From an uncultured Armatimonadetes bacterium (lineage in GTDB: Bacteria > Armatimonadota > UBA5829 > DTJY01), in contig OY970325.1 of the NCBI GenBank assembly GCA_963717145.1, positions 1,334,930 through 1,398,929 of the forward strand: a stretch of DNA of 64,000 nt, written 5' to 3'. Position 1 is the first letter of the stretch, and every line of letters starts with the position of its first letter. This document shows, piece by piece, positions 3,216 through 59,849 of the stretch. A program made the translations under genes and the position numbers. The notes beneath the pieces were generated by a model. It made no database searches. It was not told the origin of the DNA and saw nothing but the letters and a program-made list of their open reading frames with translations.

Positions 3216-4027
3216 GCCGTCCTCATTCTACGCCCAATGCTCCAGGTAGTCAAATCCTGCGCCCCATCGGGGCCTCCGGACTGAGAGACAGCCACCTCGG
3301 TTTCCCCCCTCAATTGCGTGTAGATATACACAAAGGCAAGTTGGAAGACCAGCAAGGTGACGATGATACCCACACAGCACACAAGCAATCCTCCCACCAT
3401 GAACAAGCCCAGGACGATTCCTCTACCGAGTAGCTTGAGCCGGATGCCATCAGTGAGCAGGGCGCTCCTTCGAAATGATTCGACAATCCCTCCGCCGTCG
3501 GCGGCCTCATAGTAAGCGAACCCGTACCGGAGAAGGACCGCGATAATCAGTGCGATGGAGGCAAAAGCCGCCATGAGCACTACGGCGGTTTCCAACGGAT
3601 TCCCACGTGTCGACTTGATGAGGGCATCGAGGGGGAATATCGGAGGGATCGCATAGAATTCTCTCAGAACACCCACGCCTGAGACCGCCACTGCCCCTAC
3701 GGCCAAGGGGATTCCCATAATCGAGCCGATGGCCATATTGAGCCAGTAGACACCCATCCACTGGATGTACCTACGGAAACCTCCAAACAGATCACGGACC
3801 GCTGGGTATTGGCCCCGCACAGCCTTCAGATTAACAACGGCCAGTCCGCCGGCCAGGGGAGCACTGATGAGGATGGCAAAGATGAAGTGCGCGACTCTGT
3901 TCCGTCCTGCGACAAGCGACACGACGGTTTCGATGATCAAAACCGCGATCAGCACCCAAGCATATTCCCTGAACGCCTTCCAGCCGGCGGAGAGCGCCTC
4001 GCGACTACTGACCAGTCTTCCCTGCAT
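3191..4027 (-). CDS. Integral membrane protein, DUF975-like
   Basis: Multiple TM helices; ALSAGWKAF, DLFGGF, ESFRRSALLTDG, GLLVCCVGII patterns. Confidence 0.65.
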   Translation of the reverse strand: MQGRLVSSREALSAGWKAFREYAWVLIAVLIIETVVSLVAGRNRVAHFIFAILISAPLAGGLAVVNLKAVRGQYPAVRDLFGGFRRYIQWMGVYWLNMAIGSIMGIPLAVGAVAVSGVGVLREFYAIPPIFPLDALIKSTRGNPLETAVVLMAAFASIALIIAVLLRYGFAYYEAADGGGIVESFRRSALLTDGIRLKLLGRGIVLGLFMVGGLLVCCVGIIVTLLVFQLAFVYIYTQLRGETEVAVSQSGGPDGAQDLTTWSIGRRMRTAKRPRRDV

Positions 4028-4131
4028 TCCGTCACCTTTCTGGATCAGTGTATGAGCCTGCCAGTCGCTTGTACGTTACCGGCACGCCGCCCGATCTCCT
4101 CTATGGCCGCCTGGAGCGAACGGCCGATTGC

Positions 4132-4160
4132 TTGACACGGCGTGCTCGGCGGGGTATACT
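4132..4160 (+). promoter_or_regulatory. Sigma70-type promoter for the MgtE-like/NRAMP operon
   Basis: TTGACA-17 nt-TATACT about 365 nt upstream of the ATG. Confidence 0.75.
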
Positions 4161-4353
4161 CAGGATGGCCGTCAGCGGGCGGCTAATGTCTATACTCACT
4201 GAGGTGACGGTTGGTGGATACCGACCCGGCCAATAGTACCAAGCTGTGCTGCCGATGCGCGGGCAGTGGATGCAGGAGGGCCATGTAGGGACTCGTCCGA
4301 CTGGTTTGTCTCCATTCACCTCCTCTCCCCCGCCCCGCATCCAGCACTAGAAC

Positions 4354-4507
4354 AAAATTCGAAATTCGAAGTACGAAATTCGAAACAACTCCGAAATCTC
4401 AGACTCGAATCAACGAAAGAATCGAAACTCGAGGCAAACGGAGCTTTCGGATGTCGAAATTCGGATTTGCAGTTTGTTTCGAATTTCGCATTTCGAATTT
4501 CGAATTT
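4354..4507. repeat. Inverted heptamer array (AAATTCG / CGAATTT)
   Basis: aaattcg aaattcg aagtacg aaattcg ... cgaattt cgcattt cgaattt cgaattt. Confidence 0.8.
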
Positions 4508-4526
4508 GCCTTTCGGGAGGCTCATC

Positions 4527-5813
4527 ATGCAATTCCTGACTCAGGCGCTCGGCCGAACCGCTATCGACAGCATCGGCGAACCGATCGGGAAGGTGCGGGA
4601 CGTCATCGTCTCGCCCGCCGAACCGCTGCCCGTGGTGTCGGCGATAGTCGTGCAGAACGGGCACGGCCCGCTGCTGATCCCCTGGAAACAAGTGCGTGAG
4701 GAAGTCGATCGCTTCAGCCTTCCCGTCCGCAGAGACGGAATCAGAGCTTACTCCCCGAAGCCCGACGACATCTGGCTCAAGAGGAATGTGCTCGACCGCC
4801 AGATCGTCGACGTTCACGACTACAAGGTCGTCCGGGTGAACGACGTGCGGTTCGTCGAGACGCCGGGCCAAGTGCGCCTGCTCGGGGTAGACGCGTCGAG
4901 TCGGGGACTGCTTCGAGAACTCGGGATCGAATGGGTGTCGGGCATCCTTCGTCTGATCCTGAGGAGGCCGGTCTCGGAGAAGATCATCGCCTGGGACGAT
5001 GTGGAAACCCTCGAGCAGACCGCCGGTCCGATCAAGCTCAAGATCCCGCTCCAGAAGCTGTCGAAGCTCCATCCCGCCGATATCGCGGACATCATCGAGC
5101 AGATGAACCCTATGCAGCGGGCCGACATCATCGAGAGCCTCGATGTGCAGACCGCGGCGGACGTTCTGCCCGAAACAACCGCTGAGATACAGGCCGAGAT
5201 CATCGAGGACCTGGACCCTGACGATGCGGCCGATATCCTGGAGGAGATGGACCCGGACGAGGCGGCGGACATCCTCGGCGACCTGTCTGAGGAACGCACG
5301 GAAGAGATCCTGAACGAGATGGAGCCCGAGGAAGCCACTGACGTCCGAGAGTTGCTCATCTACGAGGATGAGACCGCGGGCGGCCTGATGACCACCGATT
5401 TCGTGGTGCTCTCCGACAAGCAAACCGCTCAGGAGGCGATCAACCATCTCCGCGAGCTGACGCCGGACGCTGAGACGATCTACTACCTCTACGTCGTAAC
5501 CGCTGGCGAGACGCTCGCCGGCGTGATCTCGCTGAGGGACCTGATCGTCGCTCAGCCTGGGACGCCGATCACCGAGTTCATGGTCACCAGGGTCATCCAC
5601 CTCCACCCGGAGGCCAGCGTGCGGGAGGTCGCCGAGTTGTTCCAGAAGTACAATCTTCTCGCGCTGCCGGTCGTCGACTTCGGAAACGAATTGAAGGGCA
5701 TCATCACGGTGGATGACATCTTCGAGCACATACCGACGCGCGCATGGCGCGGGCGTCCCGGGAAGCGTCAGACCGCCCCCGAGCAGATGCTCGAACACGA
5801 AGTCGAGGCGTAG
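4527..5813 (+). CDS. MgtE-like cytosolic protein (PRC-barrel, MgtE N domain, CBS pair; no TM domain)
   Basis: LHPADIADIIE, MDPDEAADIL, YEDETAGGLMTT, GIITVDD; GGGAGG RBS before ATG 4527. Confidence 0.85.
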   Translation: MQFLTQALGRTAIDSIGEPIGKVRDVIVSPAEPLPVVSAIVVQNGHGPLLIPWKQVREEVDRFSLPVRRDGIRAYSPKPDDIWLKRNVLDRQIVDVHDYKVVRVNDVRFVETPGQVRLLGVDASSRGLLRELGIEWVSGILRLILRRPVSEKIIAWDDVETLEQTAGPIKLKIPLQKLSKLHPADIADIIEQMNPMQRADIIESLDVQTAADVLPETTAEIQAEIIEDLDPDDAADILEEMDPDEAADILGDLSEERTEEILNEMEPEEATDVRELLIYEDETAGGLMTTDFVVLSDKQTAQEAINHLRELTPDAETIYYLYVVTAGETLAGVISLRDLIVAQPGTPITEFMVTRVIHLHPEASVREVAELFQKYNLLALPVVDFGNELKGIITVDDIFEHIPTRAWRGRPGKRQTAPEQMLEHEVEA

Positions 5814-18958: not shown

Positions 18959-18978
18959 GAAATCCTCCAACAAGACAT

Positions 18979-19066
18979 TAGACCATAGACCTTAGACCAG
19001 GGGACGGCATCTCCGCCCCTCGTCCAAGGTCTACGGTCTAATGTCCAAAGTCTAAAGTCTAAAGTC
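18979..19066. repeat. Inverted heptamer array (TAGACCA / GTCTAAA)
   Basis: tagacca tagacct tagacca ... ggtctac ggtctaa tgtccaa agtctaa agtctaa; overlaps the dapF stop. Confidence 0.75.
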
Positions 19067-19907
19067 TGATCTTCCCCTGATACACTTCGACCGCGGGGCC
19101 GGTCATGTACACATTGCCATCGTCCCGCCAGTCGATCGACAGATCCCCGCCGGGGAGATGAACGGTCGCGCACCGAGCGGTCTTCCCTGTGAGCGATCCG
19201 GCCACGACCGTTGCACAGGCCCCGGTCCCGCACGCGAGCGTGACGCCGGCGCCTCGTTCCCATACCCGCATGATGACTTCTTCCGGCGAGATCACCTGGG
19301 CGAAATCGACGTTCGTCTTCTGCGGGAATGCGGGGTGCGTCTCGATACTTGGGCCTATCTCCTCGAGTGGCACATCGGCTGCGCAGTGGACGAAGATCAC
19401 GCAGTGCGGAATGCCCACATTCACACAGGTGATCTCCAGGCGCTGGCCGTTCACATCGAGCGGCTGAAGGATCACTTGTCCGGTATACCCAGTGACCGGG
19501 ATCTCAGCGGCGTCGAGCTTCGGAGCGCCCATGTTCACGGTCGCGGAAACCGCCAGGCCCTCCTGCCCCTGCACCTCGACGTATTTGGTACCCCCGAGCG
19601 TCTCGATGCTCACGGATTCCTTCATGAGGCCGCGATCGAACAGGTACTTGGCAAAACACCGAGTGGCATTGCCGCACATCTCGGCCTCGCTGCCATCGGA
19701 GTTGATGATCCTCATGCGGTAGTCAGCGGCATCCGACGGGAGCACCAGAACCAGGCCGTCCGCGCCGACACCGAAATGCCGCTCGCAGACCTGTTCCGAA
19801 ACCTTCGCCAGGTCGAATCCTTCCAGCGGACCCATGCCCTGCACGCAGTCCACGAAGATGAAGTCGTTGCCGGCTCCGTGCATCTTCACGAATTGTACTT
19901 CGGGCAT
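19059..19907 (-). CDS. dapF: Diaminopimelate epimerase
   Basis: KMHGAGNDF, INSDGSEAEMCGNATRC, ERGAGVTLACGTGACA. Confidence 0.95.
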   Translation of the reverse strand: MPEVQFVKMHGAGNDFIFVDCVQGMGPLEGFDLAKVSEQVCERHFGVGADGLVLVLPSDAADYRMRIINSDGSEAEMCGNATRCFAKYLFDRGLMKESVSIETLGGTKYVEVQGQEGLAVSATVNMGAPKLDAAEIPVTGYTGQVILQPLDVNGQRLEITCVNVGIPHCVIFVHCAADVPLEEIGPSIETHPAFPQKTNVDFAQVISPEEVIMRVWERGAGVTLACGTGACATVVAGSLTGKTARCATVHLPGGDLSIDWRDDGNVYMTGPAVEVYQGKIRL

Positions 19908-22052: not shown

Positions 22053-22094
22053 GGAATGCAGAGTGCAGAGTGAACTGCCAAGGGGGAGACAGTC

Positions 22095-25000: not shown

Positions 25001-25127
25001 GTACTTCAGGCTTGCGCACGAGTTCCTGCGTGCGAATCCGGCGAAGATGAGACGGTACATGGAGTCGCTGGCGTACACCCGCTCAGAGGGCCGCAGAGTG
25101 CCGATCGCAGTCTGGGAGAATGGTTGA
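22095..25127 (+). CDS. DUF5107 domain + TPR protein
   Basis: LENELL, GAWISGGIEFNFP, YWWTNA, YLEIQSGRF, EYPPNLG; helical repeats in the C-terminal half. Confidence 0.8.
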   Translation: MPEEVEVHLETIELPTYETMSEKPDPWFGKRLGAHTYPYRLQDGLTKERVIRRYDAIILENELLLLTVLPDFGCRLFSVYDKLLGREVFHRNDCIKPTLIATRGAWISGGIEFNFPVSHSVYTHSRIPFTTRRNPDGSASVIFGLTERMTEMRFTVEVRLAPQEYRFSDTIRLYNGTPLPRRHYWWTNAGVYSTPDTRLIYAMTRGISGAYGENTTWPIHDGIDLSRIGSHAFTGDVFGAETYDQFFGVYYDQAGCGVAHWSKQDEMPGRKVFCWGQDEMGKLWQSMLTENAGDYLEIQSGRFATQSDFGLLQPHELVTMTEYWLPVGPTGGFVKAHREGIINLGPDGSVAVQMTRPVRGATVKIMGQDRMTGDLAAGEVYRFETSGDAGDTSVEVLDADGNAVLAYDPQQKDRVHDIVPRTSVFPEQTETADEMLQAANASERFDSSDAAIRRLEQLMVTEHEVEGRKGLARFALRAGRWEDAEEQARALPEGDHEANALLALALDGQGDDARDLWQSLACDASFGVLAKRRVAESFIRQGEWDGVAGLVLGSPDPMLSLLGVIAERKLGLTSDRLSTLIEADPLWRHALWENFFRKRNELPELTSETFQEDMDAAGMYLDLGLLDEARAVVEAWTSARPPSDPFLRVLIEELDIEPPSEYRADEWGIVNCFAHRDILMRLIESRDDAESLTDLGNMLYARGRIDEAIEKWHAAQEGYLPRRNLAIAHWHKKDDLQTAYRYMRGASDLCPGSPAILRDCDILADLSGNESDRLEIVTRIMKYAPEDSGCLERAVRAYLAADRLDDAIDLLQTKTFFVAELAYQTRILYVWAMIGRGMRNMTEERYADAAVDFRAATEYPPNLGASRFHDSSDAQALFLLGEALSKLGDTEDARKAHASAADDMPVRGTEQAFYVGQARDRPGRDDAREARKKILPADQSADTPEAQARLNYLKGLERLAAHDPDASAEYFRLAHEFLRANPAKMRRYMESLAYTRSEGRRVPIAVWENG

Positions 25128-25188
25128 TGGTTGATGGTCGATGACATTCGCATTCCCAATCAGCCATTGACCATGAACTATCAACCAT
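25121..25188. repeat. Inverted heptamer array (TGGTTGA / CAACCAT)
   Basis: tggttga tggttga tggtcga ... cagccat tgaccat gaactat caaccat. Confidence 0.75.
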
Positions 25189-29136: not shown

Positions 29137-29537
29137 GGCGATGACGAGGAAGAGTACCCGCCCGGCGCAGGCCGGGAAATCCGAAACTCGAAACACGAAA
29201 TTCGAATTGCGGACTTTGCGGTCAGGTTACAGAGAACCGGGTAAGCTGAGAACCGGGGCCGAGTCGCGTGGGGAATATCACCTCCGAGCCGGAGCGGCGA
29301 AAGGGAAGTCATCAGTTATCGGTAATCAGTTATCAGTAAGACCGAGACCGATCACTGATCACTGATTACCGATCACCGAGTAGTTGCTCCCGGGCGGTTC
29401 CCGTTACAGAACCGAGGTATGCGGATCGTCCAAGTACCTGCGAAGGTCCGGGCTGTGAAGCGCGGGCGAATCGGGGTGGTACCACGAAGGCTTATGAGCC
29501 TCTCGTCCCTGCTGTGGGGATGAGAGGCTTTTGTTTT
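29137..29537 (+). promoter_or_regulatory. T-box riboswitch (Ile specifier AUC) with terminator
   Basis: AGTA at 29153, AGAGA at 29231, GCTGAGA loop, ATC at 29277-29279, T-box aatcggggtggtaccacg at 29469-29486, terminator agcctctcgtccc/gggatgagaggct plus T-rich tail. Confidence 0.88.
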
Positions 29538-29624
29538 GGGGAGGTTATGGATTCTGGGTTTTGGGTTATGGGGAACCCCGAAACCCAAAACCTACAACCC
29601 ATAACAATTCTGTGGAGGTATCGC

Positions 29625-38793: not shown

Positions 38794-40020
38794 ATGGGAT
38801 CAGAGATCGGGATTGAGAAGAGAAGCCTCCTGCGCTCGCTCGGGCCGGGGTTCATCACCGCTGCGGTGGTGATCGGGCCGGGAAGCGTCACGGTGGCATC
38901 GAAGATCGGCGCGTCGGCCGGCATGAGCCTCCTGTGGGCGGTGATCGTCGCAGGGAGCTTCATGATGCTCTACACTGCGATGTCCGCACGCATCGGGGTG
39001 CTGAACAAGCACTCGCTGCTGACACTCGTTGCGACGCACTACGGGAGGTGGCTCGCCGTCGTGATGGGCATCCTCGCGTTCGTGGTGTGCGCGTCATTCC
39101 AGATGGGCAACTACCTCGCGTGCAGTACGGCCCTCAAGACGTTGACCGGCATCCACGAGATGGTCTGGATGGCGGTGGTCGGCCTGACTGCGCTTGTTTT
39201 CGTCTTCGCAGCGAAGAAGCTCTACCAGGCGATGGAGAAGGTGATGCTCGCGCTCGTCATGTTCATGCTGGTGGCATTCATCATCAATCTGATCGTGTCG
39301 AAGCCAACCCTCAGCGAGGTCTTCGCGGGCCTGATCCCGAGCCGATGGCCCGGAGCGATGACCGGCCTCGTCACCGCGATGGTCGCGACGACCTTCTCCG
39401 TGATCGCAGCGCTCTACCAATCGACGATGGCCCAACAGAAGGGATGGGGCGCGAGCGATCTCCGACTCGGCTTGACTGACACGATGGTCGGCATCGGCGT
39501 TCTCACGGGCATCTCGATAGTGATCACAATGACATCGGCGTCGGTCCTGCGAGGCGCGGTCATTGCTGATGCGAGCGATCTGGCAAGGCAGCTCGACCCG
39601 CTCCTCGGGCATGCGTCGGTGATCATCTTCAGCCTCGGATTCCTGGCAGCTTCGTTCAGCTCGACGATCGTGAACGCAATGATCGGTGGCGGACTGCTTG
39701 CCGACTCGATGGGGATGAGTTCGGACATCAACGCCCGGCCATCACGGATGCTCACTGCATTCGGCATGGCAGTCGGGATGGCGGCGGGCATCTACACGCT
39801 TTTCACGAACACTCCACTCGGCGGGATCGTCCTGGCCCAGAAGAGCACAATCCTGGCGGTCCCTCTCTGCGCGCTGGTGATGATCGTGCTCGCGAACGAC
39901 AAGCGCGTGGTCGGCACACACCGCAACTCGCTCCTGTCGAACGCCTGGGCGGTGGTCGCACTCCTGGTGCTCGTCTGGATGAGCGTCTATCGGGTGATGG
40001 AGATGGTGGGAAATGGTTGA
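38794..40020 (+). CDS. NRAMP-like (APC-fold) transporter
   Basis: LGPGFITAAVVIGPGSVT, many TM segments, MVATTFS. Confidence 0.8.
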   Translation: MGSEIGIEKRSLLRSLGPGFITAAVVIGPGSVTVASKIGASAGMSLLWAVIVAGSFMMLYTAMSARIGVLNKHSLLTLVATHYGRWLAVVMGILAFVVCASFQMGNYLACSTALKTLTGIHEMVWMAVVGLTALVFVFAAKKLYQAMEKVMLALVMFMLVAFIINLIVSKPTLSEVFAGLIPSRWPGAMTGLVTAMVATTFSVIAALYQSTMAQQKGWGASDLRLGLTDTMVGIGVLTGISIVITMTSASVLRGAVIADASDLARQLDPLLGHASVIIFSLGFLAASFSSTIVNAMIGGGLLADSMGMSSDINARPSRMLTAFGMAVGMAAGIYTLFTNTPLGGIVLAQKSTILAVPLCALVMIVLANDKRVVGTHRNSLLSNAWAVVALLVLVWMSVYRVMEMVGNG

Positions 40021-40074
40021 TGGTTGATGGCTGATGGCCCCCCATTAACCATCAACAATCAACCATTCACCATC
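40014..40074. repeat. Inverted heptamer array (TGGTTGA / AACCATC)
   Basis: tggttga tggttga tggctga ... aaccatc aacaatc aaccatt caccatc. Confidence 0.75.
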
Positions 40075-40952: not shown

Positions 40953-41998
40953 AACATGCAAACTGTAAAATGAAAAAGGGGACATGGGGCTGGATTTTGC
41001 CTTTTGCACTTTGCATTTTGCACTTTTCATTTCCCCTATGCGCAAAGTCCGCGCCGTCGATCGCGTGGCAGCGCGGCCCCGATATGCCGAGCGCCCATGA
41101 CTACCTCGGGTGCGGAGTGATGGACGGCCTCTTCGTCGTCGCGGGCGGGGCCTACTGGGAGCACGATCAGAAGCATTACGGCCGGGGGACGATCGCATAC
41201 TCGCCGATCCAGGGCCGATGGATCACGCTCCCCGACCTCCCGAAGTCGGGCGCATACGGGGCGTCCGCGGTGATCGATGGCCAACTCGTGATCGCGGGCG
41301 GCGCGGATTCGACAGGCGCCCTCAAGTCGTGCTTCCGGCTCAGGCGCGTCGACGGACGGCTGAGATGGGATTCGCTCCCCGATCTCCCCCGACCGATCTG
41401 GGGCGCATCGGGGGCGGCGCTCGGTAAGCGATTCTACGTCGTTGGCGGCGCGCCGGGAATGGACCCACAGGCTCTCAAGGGCGCTCATCCGAGCCTCCTT
41501 ATGCTCGATCTCTCGGCGGTCCGGCCCGAATGGGTCGAGTTCGTCGGCCCCACCCTGCCCGCGGGTCGAGTCGGCGCGGCATCGGCAGTCGTCGGCACGA
41601 AGCTCTTCGTCTTCGGGGGATATGGGCTTCAGGCGGACCGCGCGCTCGGCAACTTTGCGGATGCGCACATGACCGATCTGGGTGAGAATCCGCGGACTTG
41701 GATGCGGATCAAGGCCATGCCGCTCACCATGAGATGGTCGTCCGCGCGAGCGATCGACGATCGGTACGTAATGATTGCCGGCGGATATGCCGAGAGTCAA
41801 AGCAGCGGGTTCCTTGATAAGGTCTGGTTCTATGACACGACGGACGACCAGTACTTGCCCTGTGATCCCCTACCCCTGCCGGTCGCCACAATGGCCTCGT
41901 GTGTGGGCGGCGATGGAACGATCTACCTCGCAGGTGGAGAAGATGCCTTGCGCCGCCGCTCGTCGGCGTTCTTCGTCGGCCGGCTCGGAGACCGGTAG
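40949..41998 (+). CDS. Kelch-repeat beta-propeller protein (NanM-like)
   Basis: Repeated GG-aromatic Kelch motifs (VAGG, VVGG, VFGG, LAGG); ATGA overlap. Confidence 0.75.
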   Translation: MKHANCKMKKGTWGWILPFALCILHFSFPLCAKSAPSIAWQRGPDMPSAHDYLGCGVMDGLFVVAGGAYWEHDQKHYGRGTIAYSPIQGRWITLPDLPKSGAYGASAVIDGQLVIAGGADSTGALKSCFRLRRVDGRLRWDSLPDLPRPIWGASGAALGKRFYVVGGAPGMDPQALKGAHPSLLMLDLSAVRPEWVEFVGPTLPAGRVGAASAVVGTKLFVFGGYGLQADRALGNFADAHMTDLGENPRTWMRIKAMPLTMRWSSARAIDDRYVMIAGGYAESQSSGFLDKVWFYDTTDDQYLPCDPLPLPVATMASCVGGDGTIYLAGGEDALRRRSSAFFVGRLGDR

Positions 41999-54672: not shown

Positions 54673-55147
54673 ATGAATGGGGAATCTGACGGCGAGGGCA
54701 TTCGGTCCGAGCAGGTTCGCGCTTCACTGCGCAGTGCCTTCGCGGAGGTGGCATGTCCTTACGAGAGCTGCGACTTACCGGATGGCTACTGGCGAGATAT
54801 GCGGGAGCATCTGTGGGATCTGCTTGAGCCGGAGCTCAGATGGGAACTGCCCAGGATATTGGCGAGTCTTCTTGACGATCCCGAAAGAGAGAACATCCTG
54901 GATGTCATCTCGTTCCTCGATGTGCATGGACCTCCGCCTCAGGTCCTGAGTGAGCACGTGCGAGCGGCATCGGGGCACCTGCGCGAGCACCGAGCCTCAG
55001 GCATTTGACGAGATCACACCTGAGCAGGCCGGCGCAATACTCAAGTGGCTCGAGTTCATCTGGACTCTGTATCCGGATGGGTTCTTCTACGAGCCCTGGC
55101 TACGACGTGGCATGGACTACTGGGCAGCACGTTCTCGCAAGCCGTAG
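54673..55147 (+). CDS. Hypothetical protein (DUF6714-like; probable frameshift near 54990)
   Basis: SAFAEVACP...LPRIL then, in another frame, FDEITPEQAGAILKWLEF...YW. Confidence 0.45.
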
Positions 55148-55204
55148 CATGCCGAAGATCGCTCGGCTGATTCTCCGAACCTGGGGGCGCTTGAGGGGAT
55201 ACGC

Positions 55205-55702
55205 GTGATGACATCGAGTCAGAAGGCTGACGATACTGCAAGTACCGTGCACATTCCTGCGCGAGTCAGGGCAGTGGTGATAGACTCGGCATCGGTCCTC
55301 GGATTGGCGTGGCTATGTAGCCGGTACCTGCACGTTCTTTGGTTTCCTGTGTCTGGAAGTGATGTGCTGGCTGTTGCCGGCTTTGCTGCATGCTGCCTCG
55401 GAACGTTCAAGGCAATCGGTGACGTGTTGGGCATCTCAGTCGTGAAAGACTTTCGCGCATCACACGGTACTGCCGCACGCGCCGCCTCTGCGCTCATCGG
55501 GCCGCTGATGATAGGATTACTCTGTCTGAGCCTGGTGTTGGGAATGGCGGTCCTCTTGATGCTGCCCAGCAGGTGGGGAAGGCCGCCTTATGCGCTCGAC
55601 CGTTGGGTTGTCGCGCTTATACTCTCGACCGGTTTCTGGGTGATAACCTTCTGGCGACTCTCCAAACGTCGACACCGCAAAGAGCCGGACGATGATGAGT
55701 AG
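55205..55702 (+). CDS. Hypothetical membrane protein
   Basis: Four hydrophobic segments; GAGGGG RBS. Confidence 0.5.
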   Translation: MMTSSQKADDTASTVHIPARVRAVVIDSASVLGLAWLCSRYLHVLWFPVSGSDVLAVAGFAACCLGTFKAIGDVLGISVVKDFRASHGTAARAASALIGPLMIGLLCLSLVLGMAVLLMLPSRWGRPPYALDRWVVALILSTGFWVITFWRLSKRRHRKEPDDDE

Positions 55703-55743
55703 GCAGGACTATCGAGTATAGAGAAAAGGGCGGGAACACGGAA

Positions 55744-56076
55744 ATGGACACAGACCACAACAAAGAGCAGCAAACCGCGCCACATTCCGGCCTGGGCACG
55801 ATCTCCCTGGTCATCGCGGCCGTCAGTTTCCTCCTGTTCGCCACGTCGATCTCCCTGCCGCTCTTCGGGTCGCTGAAACACTCCGATGCCGCCCTTATAC
55901 GCCTGCTTATCCTACCCTGGCTCGCCCTCAGCGCTATGGGGGTTCTCGTGGGAGTGGCGGCACGGCTGCAGAACGGCGCCAACCGCACCTTCGCCAGGAT
56001 CGGTGTGATCGCCAATATCCTGCTCATTGCCGCAATCATCATCATTGTTGCACAGCTGTACGCGCCCTGCAGGTAG
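55744..56076 (+). CDS. Small membrane protein
   Basis: HSGLGTISL, three TM segments, FARIGVIAN. Confidence 0.6.
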   Translation: MDTDHNKEQQTAPHSGLGTISLVIAAVSFLLFATSISLPLFGSLKHSDAALIRLLILPWLALSAMGVLVGVAARLQNGANRTFARIGVIANILLIAAIIIIVAQLYAPCR

Positions 56077-56152
56077 CCCCCGCCACCCCACGCGATTGAA
56101 ATCGCCCCTACGAACGGCACGAAGTCGACCTCCGTCGACTGGCAGACGAAAG

Positions 56153-56212
56153 CAGGGCGGGGACATCATCGTCCCCGCCCATTCCGCATTCCGCATTCCC
56201 CAATCCGCATTC
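56153..56212. terminator. GC hairpin plus CCGCATT heptamer tract between convergent genes
   Basis: gggcggggac-atcatc-gtccccgccc followed by ccgcatt ccgcatt ccccaat ccgcatt. Confidence 0.5.
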
Positions 56213-56213
56213 C

Positions 56214-56876
56214 CTACGCCGCCAGCTCACCCCTGGCCGCGGTCGTCGCCTCAGCGGACGAGGAACTCAGCTCGGTCGCCTTCGTTCCCCGGTAGCGGGC
56301 CACGTACTGATAGTCCGCCGCCGATCCGACGATCGTATCGGTGTAGGGCGAAGAGGTAGCGAAGTTGACCAACTGATATTGGGTCTCGCCGCTCTTCTTT
56401 CGGTAGATGTTGCAGCCCAGGACACCTGCGGGCTTGCCGTTCGTGCGCTCGTTCTGCGGCGTCGGGCCGAAATGAACGATCACCGAGCCGACCATCGACT
56501 CCAGATACAGCGAGGGCGGAGTCAGCAGCTCGATCGGTGTGGGCGACTGCACCGTGTCGTCGCGTCCCAGGCCGAGCAGTCCGCGAAGCTGATCCGTCAT
56601 GCCGGGATGCTTGCAGATGCGCTGGATCAGAGGGCGCAGGATGGCCAGCGCCTCCTGGCGGTCTGTGTTCTTCAGCGCAATTGCAGAGGTTGCAAGCGCC
56701 TTCTGAAGCTGGTAGTTGGTGAGTGAATCGATGAACGCACCGCTCGCAGTGGTGATTGGGGTGAGGTTGGCGGGAATCAGGCCGACCATGCCTGCGTTGG
56801 TCGTCAGGTTGCTGACGAACGCCTGCAGCCATACGTTGAAATCGTTATCGCTTGTGGGTAGAACGTTTCTTGCCAA
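56214..56876 (-). CDS. Cytoplasmic protein with N-terminal helical domain and C-terminal FN3-like domain
   Basis: LPTSDNDFNVWLQAF and long amphipathic helices; KPAGVLGCNIYRK, SSPYTD, YQYVARY; TTG start with GGAGG RBS; no signal peptide. Confidence 0.75.
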   Translation of the reverse strand: MARNVLPTSDNDFNVWLQAFVSNLTTNAGMVGLIPANLTPITTASGAFIDSLTNYQLQKALATSAIALKNTDRQEALAILRPLIQRICKHPGMTDQLRGLLGLGRDDTVQSPTPIELLTPPSLYLESMVGSVIVHFGPTPQNERTNGKPAGVLGCNIYRKKSGETQYQLVNFATSSPYTDTIVGSAADYQYVARYRGTKATELSSSSAEATTAARGELAA

Positions 56877-56955
56877 GGGAATACCTCCCCAATTATGGTG
56901 TACCCGTGCGGCAGTCCGGGTCGACGATCGGTGACGGAATCCAAGTTTTTGAGGC

Positions 56956-57122
56956 GTTATTCCCGCGGAATGACGTCCACTTCACGCGGAAGTACGACCA
57001 CTTCCCGCGGAAGTGAGACCACTCCACGCGGAGGTTCGCCTTAAAAACATTTTTAAGCGCCACTTCCGGCGGAGGTTCGCCTTAAAAACGTTTTTGAGGG
57101 CCACTCCACGCGGAGGTCCGCC
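56956..57122. repeat. Array of 20-21-bp palindromic units of two types
   Basis: A units at 56956, 56977, 56998, 57019, 57060, 57101; B units at 57040, 57081. Confidence 0.85.
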
Positions 57123-57452
57123 TCATACGCTTGTTTCCTCGGGCTACACAGGCGTTTTGCTCTTGCCTCGAAGCGTCTGCTCCGAACGCGCGACTGCGCC
57201 CTTCTTCACCGAACTTGTGGCCTCTGAACTGCCTACGGTGAGATCGCCGAACTGCGCGCTCCACCGCCGAGCCACTGGTTCTATTCCATACTGGTAGGAA
57301 TACTTGGGAAGGTTTTTTGAGGTTCTTTCGTGAGGGTGTTGGAGGAACAAATACATCTACGTCGAATGAGAGACTGTGCCGAATCGGCGTATGCTTTGCT
57401 TGACTGCGGTCGGTGTGCTGCGAGAATAACACGGTGTGGGAGGGGCTCCAGA

Positions 57453-58988
57453 GTGGCGCATAAGAACAGCCTAGTAGCGACTTTGCTCAGAAGCTTGGAT
57501 CTTGGGAGCTCTGTTGCTGAATCAGACGGATTGCTCGAAGTGGCGCGGGTGGAGACGTCGGCATTTGCGGATCTTATAAGTGATCGCGTCGATCTCATAC
57601 CCGGCACCAAGGGGTCGGGCAAGAGCGCTCTGTTCCGTATCTTCGTGGACTTTCTACCGGACTATTTGCTCACTCAGCGAAAAGTCGTCGTCGCCCATGG
57701 TGTACAGACGCCAGGCGATCCTGTCTTCCATACCTTTACTGAGCGGTTCCAAAAACTGACTGAAGATGAGTTTATGAGCTTCTGGTGTATCTATCTTGTG
57801 TCGCTCGCTCATGAGCAGTTTGTCAAGGGCGACCGATATAAGGCTATACTCAAGACGGCCGGGGCTGAGGTGGATGCGTTTCGGCAGGCGTGCTTGGATG
57901 CAAGGATTCCGGAGATCACTGCGAAGAAGTCGCTTCGAGCGATTCTTGAGTGGTCTTTGAATGCACTTCGTCTATGGCGCCCGAAGCTCAGATACACTCC
58001 ACCTGGCGAAGTGGGAGAGATGGAGCTTGATCTATTCGGTTCTGCGGAGGACACTGCAGACCATGCGGCAGTAGTACCCAACCATCCGGTACAGCCGGAG
58101 TATGTCAGCGCGATTAGAGAGGCCTTGGATGCTCTGCTTGCCAAGACTGATTACACTCTGTGGCTTATGGTCGACAGGCTGGATGAAGTATTCCCAAGGC
58201 GTTCCGAGCTTGAAAGAACTGCGCTCCGGGCGCTACTCCGTGCAATGCGCCAGTTCTCCACTCCGAGGATTCGTGTCAAGATCTTCCTGCGCGATGATAT
58301 GCTAGATCATATTGTTCGTGGTGAGAATGGGTTTACCGCCCTAACGCATGTTACAGCGAGACAATCCGATACTCTTCGCTGGACCTCCGAGCAGCTTCTA
58401 ACGATGCTTGTGAAGCGGATATTTGCCAACGACTTGCTTCCACTTCGTCTAGGTGTCAACCGAGCACAGATTGATGCGAGCGCCAAGTACCGGGAGGAGT
58501 GCTTTTACAAAGTTTTCCCCCCAACCGTATTCCACGGAGCCAAACAGAGTCCTACGCTACGCTGGATCTGTAACCGGTGCGCTGACGGACGCGGCGTTGT
58601 GACCCCGCGGGACGTGCTCGATCTCGTGATTCGCGCGAGACAGAAGCAAGAGGACACATGTTCCCATGATCCTGAAGGTAGCATGGACTATATAATAGAC
58701 TCTCCGGCGATTCAGTATGGATATGAGGAGCTCTCGAAGCGCAAGCGCCAGACTTACCTTGAGGCTGAGTTCCCCCATCTCTGGAAGCACATCGAGAAGT
58801 TCATTGACGGGAAGGCTGAGTATGACGGGGAAGCTTTGCAGGTCATCTTGGGGTCGGATTGGCGGTCGATCGCTGATGACCTGGTGGCGATAGGATTTCT
58901 ATCCAAGGCTACGAAGAGCGGACGGAACATGTACTCGATCCCATTCCTCTATCGGCATAGCCTAAACGTCACACAAGGTAAGGCCTAG
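57453..58988 (+). CDS. P-loop ATPase (Sll1717/FunZ-like)
   Basis: LDLGSSVAESD, Walker A GTKGSGKS, Walker B LMVDRLDE, IFLRDD, TPRDVL; T-rich third codon positions. Confidence 0.75.
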   Translation: MAHKNSLVATLLRSLDLGSSVAESDGLLEVARVETSAFADLISDRVDLIPGTKGSGKSALFRIFVDFLPDYLLTQRKVVVAHGVQTPGDPVFHTFTERFQKLTEDEFMSFWCIYLVSLAHEQFVKGDRYKAILKTAGAEVDAFRQACLDARIPEITAKKSLRAILEWSLNALRLWRPKLRYTPPGEVGEMELDLFGSAEDTADHAAVVPNHPVQPEYVSAIREALDALLAKTDYTLWLMVDRLDEVFPRRSELERTALRALLRAMRQFSTPRIRVKIFLRDDMLDHIVRGENGFTALTHVTARQSDTLRWTSEQLLTMLVKRIFANDLLPLRLGVNRAQIDASAKYREECFYKVFPPTVFHGAKQSPTLRWICNRCADGRGVVTPRDVLDLVIRARQKQEDTCSHDPEGSMDYIIDSPAIQYGYEELSKRKRQTYLEAEFPHLWKHIEKFIDGKAEYDGEALQVILGSDWRSIADDLVAIGFLSKATKSGRNMYSIPFLYRHSLNVTQGKA

Positions 58989-59165
58989 CTGTGCAGTAGC
59001 AATCGAAGCTCACAGATCTCAAGGTGGCCCTGGCGCAGGAAAACGGGAACGGGGAATATTTGCCAAACAGCCAATGGTCTGGACCGGATATCGTCATGCC
59101 GTCCCACAAGAGAACGAACGCCTGCATCCAGGTCGCATGAACGAGAATGCCCAGAAGCGCTTGGG

Positions 59166-59849
59166 TCATACCGGCGGTTCGAGCTTGGGAGGCTCGGGGG
59201 CGGGGGCGGGCTTCTTCGTCGTCTTGCCGGCGGTGACGAGTGCGTCCGCCAGGCCGTAGATGTACGCCAGGAAGAAGACGACTCCCGTCACCAGCACCGC
59301 CGGGCTCGTGACGTAGACGAACATCTGGAGCGTATTGACGTTCCTCGGGTACGGGGGCTGCAGGAACGCCCAACTCAGCAGGAAGATAACGAACGTGCCG
59401 AAGATGAGGGCCGCCTTCGTCAGCTCGCCGTTGTAGAGCTGCCCCAGACCGGGGACGAGCGCGCTGACAAACGCAACCACCTGGCTTCTCTCCCGCGTCA
59501 CTTGGTACTTCCCAGGGTTCTGCAGCATGTCCTGGGCCATCACCTTCGCCCGCTCGGCCTCGGCGATGTCGAGCGTTGTCCTGGCGAACTTCTTCTCCAG
59601 CGAGTCCTTCCCCGGAGCGTAGTCGAGCGCGGTCCGATACTCCGCAAGCGCGGCCTGGAGCTTCCCGGCGTCATAGAGCGAATCGCCGAGCATCTCCCGA
59701 ATGAGCACGTCCTTCGGGTTGAGTTCGAGCGCCCGGCGGCACGTATCCTGGGCCTCCAGTGGCTGACCTCGCAGGCGGTGTAAGTTGGCCTTCGCGAGCA
59801 GGAGTTCCAGTTCGCGCTCGCGATCGATTCCGGGATTCTCTGTCGACAT
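59166..59849 (-). CDS. TPR protein with C-terminal membrane domain
   Basis: RRALELNP TPR; SALVPGLGQLYNGE. Confidence 0.75.
   Translation of the reverse strand: MSTENPGIDRERELELLLAKANLHRLRGQPLEAQDTCRRALELNPKDVLIREMLGDSLYDAGKLQAALAEYRTALDYAPGKDSLEKKFARTTLDIAEAERAKVMAQDMLQNPGKYQVTRERSQVVAFVSALVPGLGQLYNGELTKAALIFGTFVIFLLSWAFLQPPYPRNVNTLQMFVYVTSPAVLVTGVVFFLAYIYGLADALVTAGKTTKKPAPAPEPPKLEPPV

Follow-up and report, generated by a model that had tools for sequence, protein, structure and literature searches.

A phased 21-bp palindrome array upstream of a helical-FN3 protein gene in an uncultured Armatimonadetes bacterium, and its recurrence beside homologous genes

A 64,000-nt stretch of contig OY970325.1 (GCA_963717145.1; the whole stretch is called the window here), from an uncultured Armatimonadetes bacterium, contains a gene for a 220-aa protein with a helical N-terminal domain and a C-terminal FN3 domain. 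A contiguous array of short palindromes lies directly upstream, raising the question of whether array and gene belong together and what, if anything, reads the repeats. Arrays of the same 21-bp period, each of a different sequence, precede the gene at all three loci compared as DNA. The explanation to which we tentatively lean, at somewhat less than an even chance, is a helically phased array of dyad operators that acts at the DNA level through cooperative binding of a protein, for which the product of the gene itself is the simplest choice.

The array and its gene

The array consists of eight contiguous palindromic units, six of type A and two of type B, arranged A-A-A-A-B-A-B-A at 56959-57117 in plus-strand coordinates. 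The core of the A unit is ACTTCC-CGC-GGAAGT with variants, and the B units are A5/T5 palindromes. The gene lies on the minus strand, and A1 starts 82 nt upstream of its start codon. The elements, with unit sequences as read from the DNA, are as follows.

56214..56876, minus strand: family gene, 220 aa, TTG start, helical N-terminal domain and C-terminal FN3 domain
56884..56888, minus strand: Shine-Dalgarno-like GGAGG, 8-12 nt before the TTG start
~56943-56954: half a B unit, on the gene side of the array
56959-57035: A1-A4 block, 13-15-bp palindromes centred at 56965, 56986, 57007 and 57028, 21-bp period
56959-56971, plus strand: A1, ATTCCCGCGGAAT
56979-56993, plus strand: A2, ACTTCACGCGGAAGT
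57000-57014, plus strand: A3, ACTTCCCGCGGAAGT
57021-57035, plus strand: A4, ACTCCACGCGGAGGT
57040-57117: B1-A5-B2-A6 block, 41-bp double unit
57040-57057, plus strand: B1, CTTAAAAACATTTTTAAG
57062-57076, plus strand: A5, ACTTCCGGCGGAGGT
57081-57098, plus strand: B2, CTTAAAAACGTTTTTGAG
57103-57117, plus strand: A6, ACTCCACGCGGAGGT, identical to A4

Successive dyad centres are separated by 21, 21, 21, 20.5, 20.5, 20.5 and 20.5 bp. Tandem Repeats Finder reports a period of 21 in 3.5 copies at 56960-57032 (79% matches) and a period of 41 in 2.6 copies at 57019-57123 (84% matches). The array is beyond chance. Five matches to the A pattern (at most two mismatches) occur in the 64 kb, all within the array, with 0.35 expected and none of 100 shuffles reaching five; the B pattern (at most three mismatches) finds only the two B sites, with 0.02 expected; and perfect dyads with 5-bp arms number 14, compared with 1.6 ± 1.6 in 500 shuffles. 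Variation among the units, which fall into two types and are 76-85% identical, tends to be symmetric: A1 has one base fewer than A3 in each arm, and A4 and A6 are altered in both arms with a CTCC/GGAG stem retained.

An earlier note on this DNA had described the eight units in this order about 80 nt from the gene, with variants that keep their symmetry and a partial B unit in front, and the coordinates above bear it out on each point. It had also reported the lack of unique spacers and of cas genes. The units indeed adjoin one another, and no cas-like gene is found among the neighbours annotated at 51.7-59.8 kb; a CRISPR array, considered as a candidate, was ruled out on these two grounds. The same note asked whether such units might be spread regardless of the gene, and in the window no copy of either motif occurs outside the array. 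Its remark that 21 bp corresponds to two helical turns has been strengthened, the period being the sole feature conserved as sequence turns over.

Arrays beside homologous genes

At the DNA level, the comparison covers the window and two further loci, L001 and L002, both obtained from one metagenome-assembled genome (MAG) in a scan of genome contigs. A period-21 array stands before the gene in all three, ending 34-82 nt before the start codon; a check of homologue flanks for 20-21-bp periodic palindromes had been proposed in the earlier note. The L001 array spans 4669-4871 (Tandem Repeats Finder, 8.4 and 2 copies), and degenerate units continue in register to ~73 nt before the GTG start; that of L002 spans 1015-1095 (3.9 copies) and runs on to ~34 nt before the ATG. 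The palindrome arms are ACTTCC/GGAAGT in the window, TCGGAC/GTCCGA in L001, where an A5 tract recurs every 21 bp, and GTCCC/GGGAC in L002, which has no A-tracts. No sequence is common to the three arrays, even between L001 and L002 of the same MAG. Half-sites nevertheless alternate in orientation every 10-11 bp in each, with dyad centres alternating at 10.5 bp, and dyads exceed those in shuffled sequence in L001 (6 versus 2.3) and L002 (5 versus 1.5) as well as in the window. Across the 81.4 kb of the three sequences, a scan of lags 18-24 returned lag 21 only, apart from runs of N and a heptamer-based tract in L001; save for that tract, lag-21 arrays occur solely upstream of the three family genes.

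The position of the arrays relative to transcription is also constant. In every locus the gene is divergent from its upstream neighbour and convergent with its downstream one, so the promoter must lie within the array-bearing intergenic region and the gene is monocistronic. The repeats are non-coding, because the window array contains an in-frame stop, a ribosome-binding site precedes the conserved N-terminus in all three loci (the equivalents of the window's GGAGG are GGAGG in L001 and AGGAGG in L002), and other gene callers give ~220-aa versions of the same clusters.

Predicted proteins provide a second view of the link. A stop-free array of 21- or 42-nt period that is read through by a predicted open reading frame (ORF) yields a 7- or 14-aa period, and this signal was sought in homologues with an upstream ORF extension of at least 50 aa (n = 12; ten from 150 listed profile matches and two from 33 word-seeded matches). 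The strongest self-similarity falls at a lag of 7, 14 or 21 aa in 11 of the 12, a result reached by 0 of 2000 shuffles; the exception, P0036, is non-periodic. Left out of this set were P0100, P0095 and P0130, whose extensions of 23-30 aa show no periodicity and are shorter than the array-to-start gap in several loci, together with extensions of <20 aa (P0061, P0082 and P0059). Periods of 18, 24 and 27 nt are detectable in such a sample, and none was seen. P0034 (301 aa) matches the L001 ORF 4740-5645 in length and start and is treated as that ORF; independent informative loci then comprise 13 positives and 1 negative. The read-through positives extend to a profile E of ~1e-23, and a 41- or 42-nt double unit is frequent across the family's arrays. 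Public calls including P0010, P0020, P0034, P0040, P0042, P0084, P0133, P0169 and P0181, among others, carry false N-termini made of 7-residue repeats.

The earlier note had proposed an undescribed protein-plus-repeat system. The association it postulated stands, given arrays beside homologues in both the DNA loci and the extended ORFs, while the mechanism attached to it has not found support.

One way to dismiss the link would be to regard the arrays as neutral by-products of repeat-prone genomes, with the family association inherited or coincidental. The window does hold 12 heptamer arrays, versus 0.2 in shuffles, and a 34-nt repeat in 4.9 copies before another gene; L001 has a ~550-nt heptamer tract in the family gene's own intergenic region; and the arrays evolve fast, as described below. 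Period 21 is, however, specific to the family within the 81 kb scanned, and it recurs in 13 of the 14 informative loci, out to distant members, despite the non-homology of the arrays. Neutral inheritance cannot keep period and position while replacing sequence, and the arrays lack heptamer substructure, with a lag-7 identity of 0.18-0.30. A neutral origin is accordingly judged improbable.

Turnover of the arrays

The rate at which the arrays change can be gauged from five near-identical protein pairs, each within the same 90% cluster, that bear extensions. Their cores differ by 0 substitutions in 1096 residues; the array parts differ by 6 substitutions, one V/M difference at the start codon and indels of 7 and 14 aa. 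P0181 and P0237 are distinguished by one clean 14-aa (42-nt) indel with the N-terminus shared, and P0040 and P0233 by a 7-aa indel that may be a contig-edge effect. As judged from these predicted sequences, units are added, removed and rearranged in the arrays at a far higher rate than the gene evolves, and this explains the lack of conserved array sequence among homologues. Gain or loss of a 21-bp unit keeps both the reading frame and the helical phase.

Such behavior might also be expected of a hypervariable promoter element that requires no binder and acts through DNA structure (cruciform or hairpin extrusion, phased A-tracts, curvature or insulation from antisense read-through) while serving as a contingency locus, in which 21- or 42-bp steps in array length would tune the gene's expression at constant helical phase. 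Near-identical loci vary in the number and order of their units, all differences in the five pairs fall within the array part, and sequence turns over freely with the period kept. The A5 tracts that recur every 21 bp in L001 and the A5/T5 sequences of the window's B units are of a kind with this idea, and the opposition of the gene to both neighbours, together with terminator-like units on the antisense strand of L001 (see below), would suit an insulator. An element of this type gives no account of why one family keeps arrays and its neighbours do not, or of the upkeep of dyads by changes in both arms. L002 additionally lacks A-tracts, and 21-bp units far exceed the 1-9 nt usual for phase-variable repeats. 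We consider this possibility unlikely, but serious enough to be carried alongside the operator array.

The protein and its family

AlphaFold2 modelling of the window protein with 27 homologues gives a confident structure, with a predicted local distance difference test score (pLDDT) of 90.5. Helices are predicted at residues 10-26, 35-88 (a single helix of 54 residues) and 95-101, followed by a seven-strand FN3 beta-sandwich at ~122-214. Foldseek returns only FN3 matches from the PDB (273 at E≤1e-3), led by the titin Fn3-85 domain (E 8.5e-6, target TM-score 0.70), and from BFVD only FN3-bearing phage proteins; by sequence, the protein is below the threshold of the Pfam fn3 model. Modelled alone, the helical domain retains a pLDDT of 88.5, and in these predictions it appears as a new domain. 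The Kyte-Doolittle maximum over 19 residues is 1.22, so that no hydrophobic N-terminus is present. The earlier note's portrait of a helical and FN3-like protein with neither a signal peptide nor an obvious helix-turn-helix (HTH) motif, of which there is none among the fold matches, proved accurate.

Family databases add little. The window protein has no family match in Pfam, NCBIfam or PADLOC, and its one weak match in PHROGs is to a virion structural protein family (residues 139-213, E 0.054). A sequence-profile search of the PDB gave coiled-coil noise only (E ~0.4). Among 42 diverse members scanned singly, no Pfam family was matched by more than one, with a best E of 0.014. In the 42-member alignment only P7, W16, G32, R81, R98, P121, P149, S176, P177 and Y191 are nearly invariant; it contains no conserved catalytic residues, and no nuclease-like fold is found. 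The product looks like a binding or structural protein rather than an enzyme. The most variable segments, residues 36-80 and 102-120, fit what a specificity region might look like at the sequence level.

The window protein ends in ...ARGELAA (56214-56228 encodes ...GELAA). Among 27 close homologues, 18 have a terminal -AA, which in nine is part of -LAA; distant members differ. A C-terminal -LAA resembles the ssrA/ClpXP degron. By analogy with that degron (see PMC7652416), the protein may be short-lived.

A word-seeded search collected 33 proteins, the window protein included, and a profile search widened the set to 3608 cluster representatives at E≤1e-3, of which 1187 pass 1e-10 and 59 pass 1e-30; the weakest of the 3608 may match through FN3 alone. 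P0007, with 57% identity to the window protein, is probably a paralogue in the same genome. Taxon names are attached to members in two 'Armatimonadetes bacterium' MAG entries only. The ESM Atlas contributes only unnamed look-alike clusters annotated 'hypothetical', most frequent in Spirochaetota, Bacteroidota and Planctomycetota; a multi-phylum range is a lead resting on these look-alikes and is not established. No longer or fused forms were found among 7999 candidates, which is weak evidence, and tblastn queries with the window protein and P0084 were without a match in sets of 72,556 plasmids and 50,697 phages. P0082 (414 aa), with two copies of the N-terminal helical domain, each containing DYIP...W..NF, is the sole multi-domain form observed. 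A literature search, with subscription-only papers outside its reach, found nothing on such a family or such arrays.

RNA folding and strand preference

The layout is equally reminiscent of loci in which a repeat array is transcribed. A multi-hairpin RNA, made as a 5' leader or from antisense or divergent transcription, could be bound by the protein or could regulate the gene. As in type III toxin-antitoxin loci, where RNA repeats encoded ahead of the toxin gene neutralise its product, a spacer-less array of constant unit length and locus-specific sequence accompanies a single gene, and the 41-/42-nt double unit is close to the size of type III antitoxin repeats. Array RNAs are also predicted to fold much more stably than shuffled sequence (z -6.2 and -7.4). 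On the minus strand of L001, at 4690-4789, the antisense sequence forms tandem terminator-like units, each a 6-bp hairpin followed by CTTTTT, five of which are found versus 0.5 expected; elsewhere one such antisense site occurs in L002 and none in the window. Antisense RNA folds better in L001 (-107.7 versus -91.9 kcal/mol) and L002 (-75.9 versus -62.5 kcal/mol), and imperfect pairs are mostly C·A in the sense strand and G·T in the antisense strand, as read by eye from few independent events.

Several observations speak against an RNA. Consensus scans find no sense-strand terminator between array and gene at any of the three loci; the units are diverged and of two types; and the hairpins are of only 4-6 bp, with two competing registers. 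The two strands of the window array are equivalent in folding, without a preference for either. Because the antisense strand folds as well or better, a hairpin RNA gains nothing from strand asymmetry. Rfam has no match at E≤1 in 55000-59500 or at the L001 and L002 arrays, its one sub-threshold hit in L001, to a microRNA family, lying away from the array. The protein, for its part, shows no nuclease-like fold, catalytic residues, or PADLOC or Pfam toxin match. An RNA-level function is therefore regarded as rather unlikely.

A phased operator array

Strand equivalence is what recognition of DNA predicts. Together with the fixed two-turn period, a dyad symmetry kept through changes to both arms and the promoter-upstream position, it points to DNA-level sites for dimers on one helical face. 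In the mechanism proposed here, the array would be a cis-acting DNA element of the 220-aa gene, located in the promoter-upstream region and composed of dyad sites two helical turns apart with half-sites alternating every 10-11 bp. A dimeric or higher-order protein could then occupy the dyads, each dimer taking a single one on the same helical face, and spread cooperatively, and the resulting nucleoprotein complex would set transcription of the gene. The array copy number, changing in steps of 21 or 42 bp that keep the helical phase, might set the threshold.

Because array sequences are unrelated, even between two paralogues of one MAG, a single unlinked regulator is unlikely; the divergence of the L001 and L002 arrays is most simply fitted by a linked binder that co-evolves with its sites. 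The simplest candidate is the protein that the gene itself encodes. Recognition specific to the locus would come from its variable long helix (residues 36-80), the conserved FN3 loops would contact neighbouring molecules or a conserved partner, and the ssrA-like -LAA would make the protein short-lived in the window subfamily. Protein binding to the array, the identity of the binder, the direction of regulation and the lability of the protein are all matters that we infer.

A number of results weigh against this explanation. The helical domain has 0 PDB fold matches at E≤1e-3, structure comparison found no known DNA-binding fold, HTH included, and the FN3 matches are generic, with no pointer to DNA binding. 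Net charge is about zero (18 K+R versus 17 D+E) and there is no basic surface; with the lack of a known nucleic-acid-binding fold, this means that self-binding is not favoured. Conservation across the wide family is limited to P, W, G, Y and S residues and two Arg. On the strand of the gene, sigma-70 consensus scans of the three loci returned nothing promoter-like (checks by eye for sigma-54 and extracytoplasmic-function (ECF) sites were likewise unconvincing). On the side of the repeats, palindromes are verified in the three DNA loci only, and the dyad enrichment of L001 and L002 is modest. The extended-ORF sample is biased toward stop-free arrays with a period that is a multiple of 3. A back-translation test for palindromes in the 7-aa-periodic extensions had no power, its positive control, P0034, in whose DNA dyads are present, failing when 318 of 400 permutations reached its score. 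Lastly, the window has a repeat-prone background, with the 34-nt array and many heptamer tracts.

A broader proposal can be attached to the operator array. That the family represents a widespread, self-contained protein-repeat module, in which a non-enzymatic binder co-evolves with a hypervariable 21-/42-bp dyad array, is possible but on balance doubtful. In such a module, nucleic acid would be recognized by the new helical domain and FN3 would serve assembly or partner contact, and the array with its short-lived binder would act as a locus-specific switch or as an addiction- or defence-type unit, similar in logic to iteron/Rep or ToxIN pairs but without kinship to either.

Genomic context

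The genes around the family gene differ from locus to locus. Window neighbours (51.7-59.8 kb) include a WbsX-like enzyme, small membrane proteins, an Sll1717-family ATPase and a TPR protein; those of L001 are MutS2 and a protein of 1228 aa, and those of L002 a protein without a family match and a DUF1559 protein. Since the neighbours differ, gene and array appear to be a self-contained unit. Two further features lie 3' of the gene in the window.

56155..56180: GC-rich hairpin with a 10-bp stem and a 6-nt loop, between the convergent genes, read from the sequence
56181..56213, minus strand: heptamer tract (CATTCCG as read on the plus strand), ~4.9 copies, immediately 3' of the stop codon, super-period 21 nt

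The hairpin is likely the terminator of the family gene. It is not called by a consensus terminator scan and has a weak T run; analogous GC hairpins lie 3' of the gene in L001 and L002. Short repeats occupy the position of the heptamer tract in L002 (a 7-mer in 4.7 copies) and L001 (an 8-mer in 2.8 copies). The 3' tract may not be specific to the module, a doubt that arises because heptamer tracts are common throughout the window. A 5-mer common to the array half-site and the 3' short repeat in two of three loci was dropped as a candidate link, being compatible with chance (~0.3 per locus).

A gene found alone in three different housekeeping contexts, opposed to both neighbours, could be a mobile or formerly mobile single-gene cassette. 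The array would then hold binding sites for a function encoded by the element, in the manner of transposon-end arrays, iterons or a centromere, and would mark its end, its origin or its partition site instead of serving as an operator. There are at least two paralogues per genome (P0001/P0007; L001/L002), and a low-GC gene for a P-loop ATPase is divergent from the family gene in the window. The geometry of the arrays is also like that of iterons or of parC-type centromeres (see PMC2241845 and PMC6009700). The surroundings of the module revealed neither terminal inverted repeats nor target duplications, and no gene for a transposase, a Rep or a partition protein recurs beside it; the tblastn queries of plasmids and phages with two members were negative; and the P-loop ATPase neighbour is absent from L001 and L002. 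We hold a cassette to be quite improbable.

The divergent neighbour itself, at 57330-58988 on the plus strand, encodes a 552-aa P-loop ATPase that matches NCBIfam Sll1717 (E 1.2e-41), phrog_14159 (E 6.6e-51) and the PADLOC candidate PDC-M28C (E 2.6e-16). GC content is 0.53-0.55 in this region and 0.60-0.65 in its flanks. It is probably a horizontally acquired, defence-like gene, and its absence from L001 and L002 places it outside the module.

Comparison with known systems

In the partition systems ParR/parC and TubR/tubC, the repeats double as operator and assembly site. These systems and the present operator array candidate have in common short phased repeats directly upstream of a gene or operon (that of the binder in the known cases), with system-specific sequence and conserved geometry. 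Such centromere or operator arrays include parC of plasmid R1 (see PMC2241845 and PMC6009700). The binders of ParR/parC, TubR/tubC and ParG/parH are of the ribbon-helix-helix, HTH or ParB type, in contrast to the helical and FN3 domains here, and a partner NTPase accompanies them on plasmids, whereas the present gene is monocistronic in three of three loci, chromosomal and without a plasmid match.

Iterons are direct repeats of 17-22 bp, spaced at about two helical turns beside a Rep gene, incompatibility-specific and with an AT-rich element nearby. The likeness lies in the phased 21-bp period upstream of a gene, which is one of geometry only, and in the AT-rich B units of the window. No winged-helix Rep fold and no Pfam or NCBIfam match is found in the family protein, however, and its loci are flanked by housekeeping genes rather than carried on plasmids, with units that are dyad-symmetric and not purely direct. 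By analogy, the module may be described as a cis repeat array with a cognate factor, functionally closest to ParR/parC, TubR/tubC or iteron/Rep.

Type III toxin-antitoxin loci have a terminator between array and toxin gene, and near-identical repeats. The family loci resemble ToxIN, CptIN and TenpIN in that tandem repeats without spacers immediately precede a single gene (3/3 DNA loci), with a repeat sequence that is, here by proposal, cognate to the protein; they differ in lacking a sense-strand terminator in consensus scans and in their diverged units and 21-nt base period. The protein of the known systems is a ToxN/AbiQ-type endoribonuclease (see PMC8860590, PMC4627078 and PMC12283969), and no nuclease fold or toxin match is found here.

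Other repeat classes are more remote. REP/BIME elements (see PMC2817692 and PMC3333891) are paired with RAYT, and share with the family arrays extragenic palindromes of regular spacing and alternating orientation beside the gene of a protein presumed to act on them. They are dispersed through genomes in high copy, versus one locus in 64 kb here, and RAYT is a Y1 (HUH) transposase to which the family protein is unrelated. The TAACTGA heptamer repeats of Beggiatoaceae, Cyanobacteria and Bacteroidetes (PMC4679880) are likewise short, tandem, lineage-abundant and placed near gene starts or ends, and the window has a 7-nt excess; they consist, though, of a single 7-nt sequence before many unrelated genes, as opposed to locus-specific 21-bp dyads before one family. 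Phase-variable contingency loci are comparable in that copy number differs between close relatives (P0181/P0237, 42 nt). Their units, of 1-9 nt, alter frame or spacing, unlike the 21-bp unit of the arrays.

Other repeats in the window and at L001 and L002

The heptamer arrays of the window are defined by at least three units. Periods of 5, 6 and 8-12 give only 0-2 arrays each. Of the descriptions found, the TAACTGA-type repeats (PMC4679880) come nearest to these heptamers.

Window, 4-26 kb: heptamer arrays at 4355-4377, 4477-4508, 18978-18999, 19040-19070, 22054-22074 and 25118-25144
Window, 29-57 kb: heptamer arrays at 29346-29373, 29552-29572, 40012-40039, 40042-40063, 40995-41026 and 56177-56206

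Several are inverted pairs with the potential to form long hairpins with stems made of heptamers (for example 40013-40074, 18973-19067, 4355-4507 and 29543-29605). Heptamer tracts as in the window are present in L001 and L002. The long tract of L001, at 3882-4468, consists of GTTCGAT/GTTCGAC-type heptamers with super-periods of 21, 63 and 105 nt, is interrupted by a masked run of N and is placed between mutS2 and the family gene's array. At 872-1039 in the window, a 34-nt unit is repeated 4.9 times (94% matches), each unit with a GGGCGG/CCGCCC hairpin. This second, dissimilar array before a gene adjoins the ribosome-binding site of an ORF on the minus strand with its start near 849, whose N-terminus looks by eye like that of a Gfo/Idh/MocA-type oxidoreductase. 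A terminator-like hairpin at 1043-1064 is separate from this array.

Implications

The family is large, with 1187 cluster representatives at E≤1e-10, yet it matches no family in Pfam, NCBIfam or PADLOC. The combination of a fixed 21-bp period, full sequence turnover and change in copy number is a signature of structural constraint between a repeat and its reader. If the adjacent protein reads the array, the family would offer a new nucleic-acid-recognition domain with naturally diversified specificities, and orthogonal pairs of protein and site. If no protein does so, the arrays would represent a new kind of hypervariable promoter element that preserves its phase. In either case, read-through N-termini can be recognized and corrected in gene calls, and the same signal can be used to detect further arrays.

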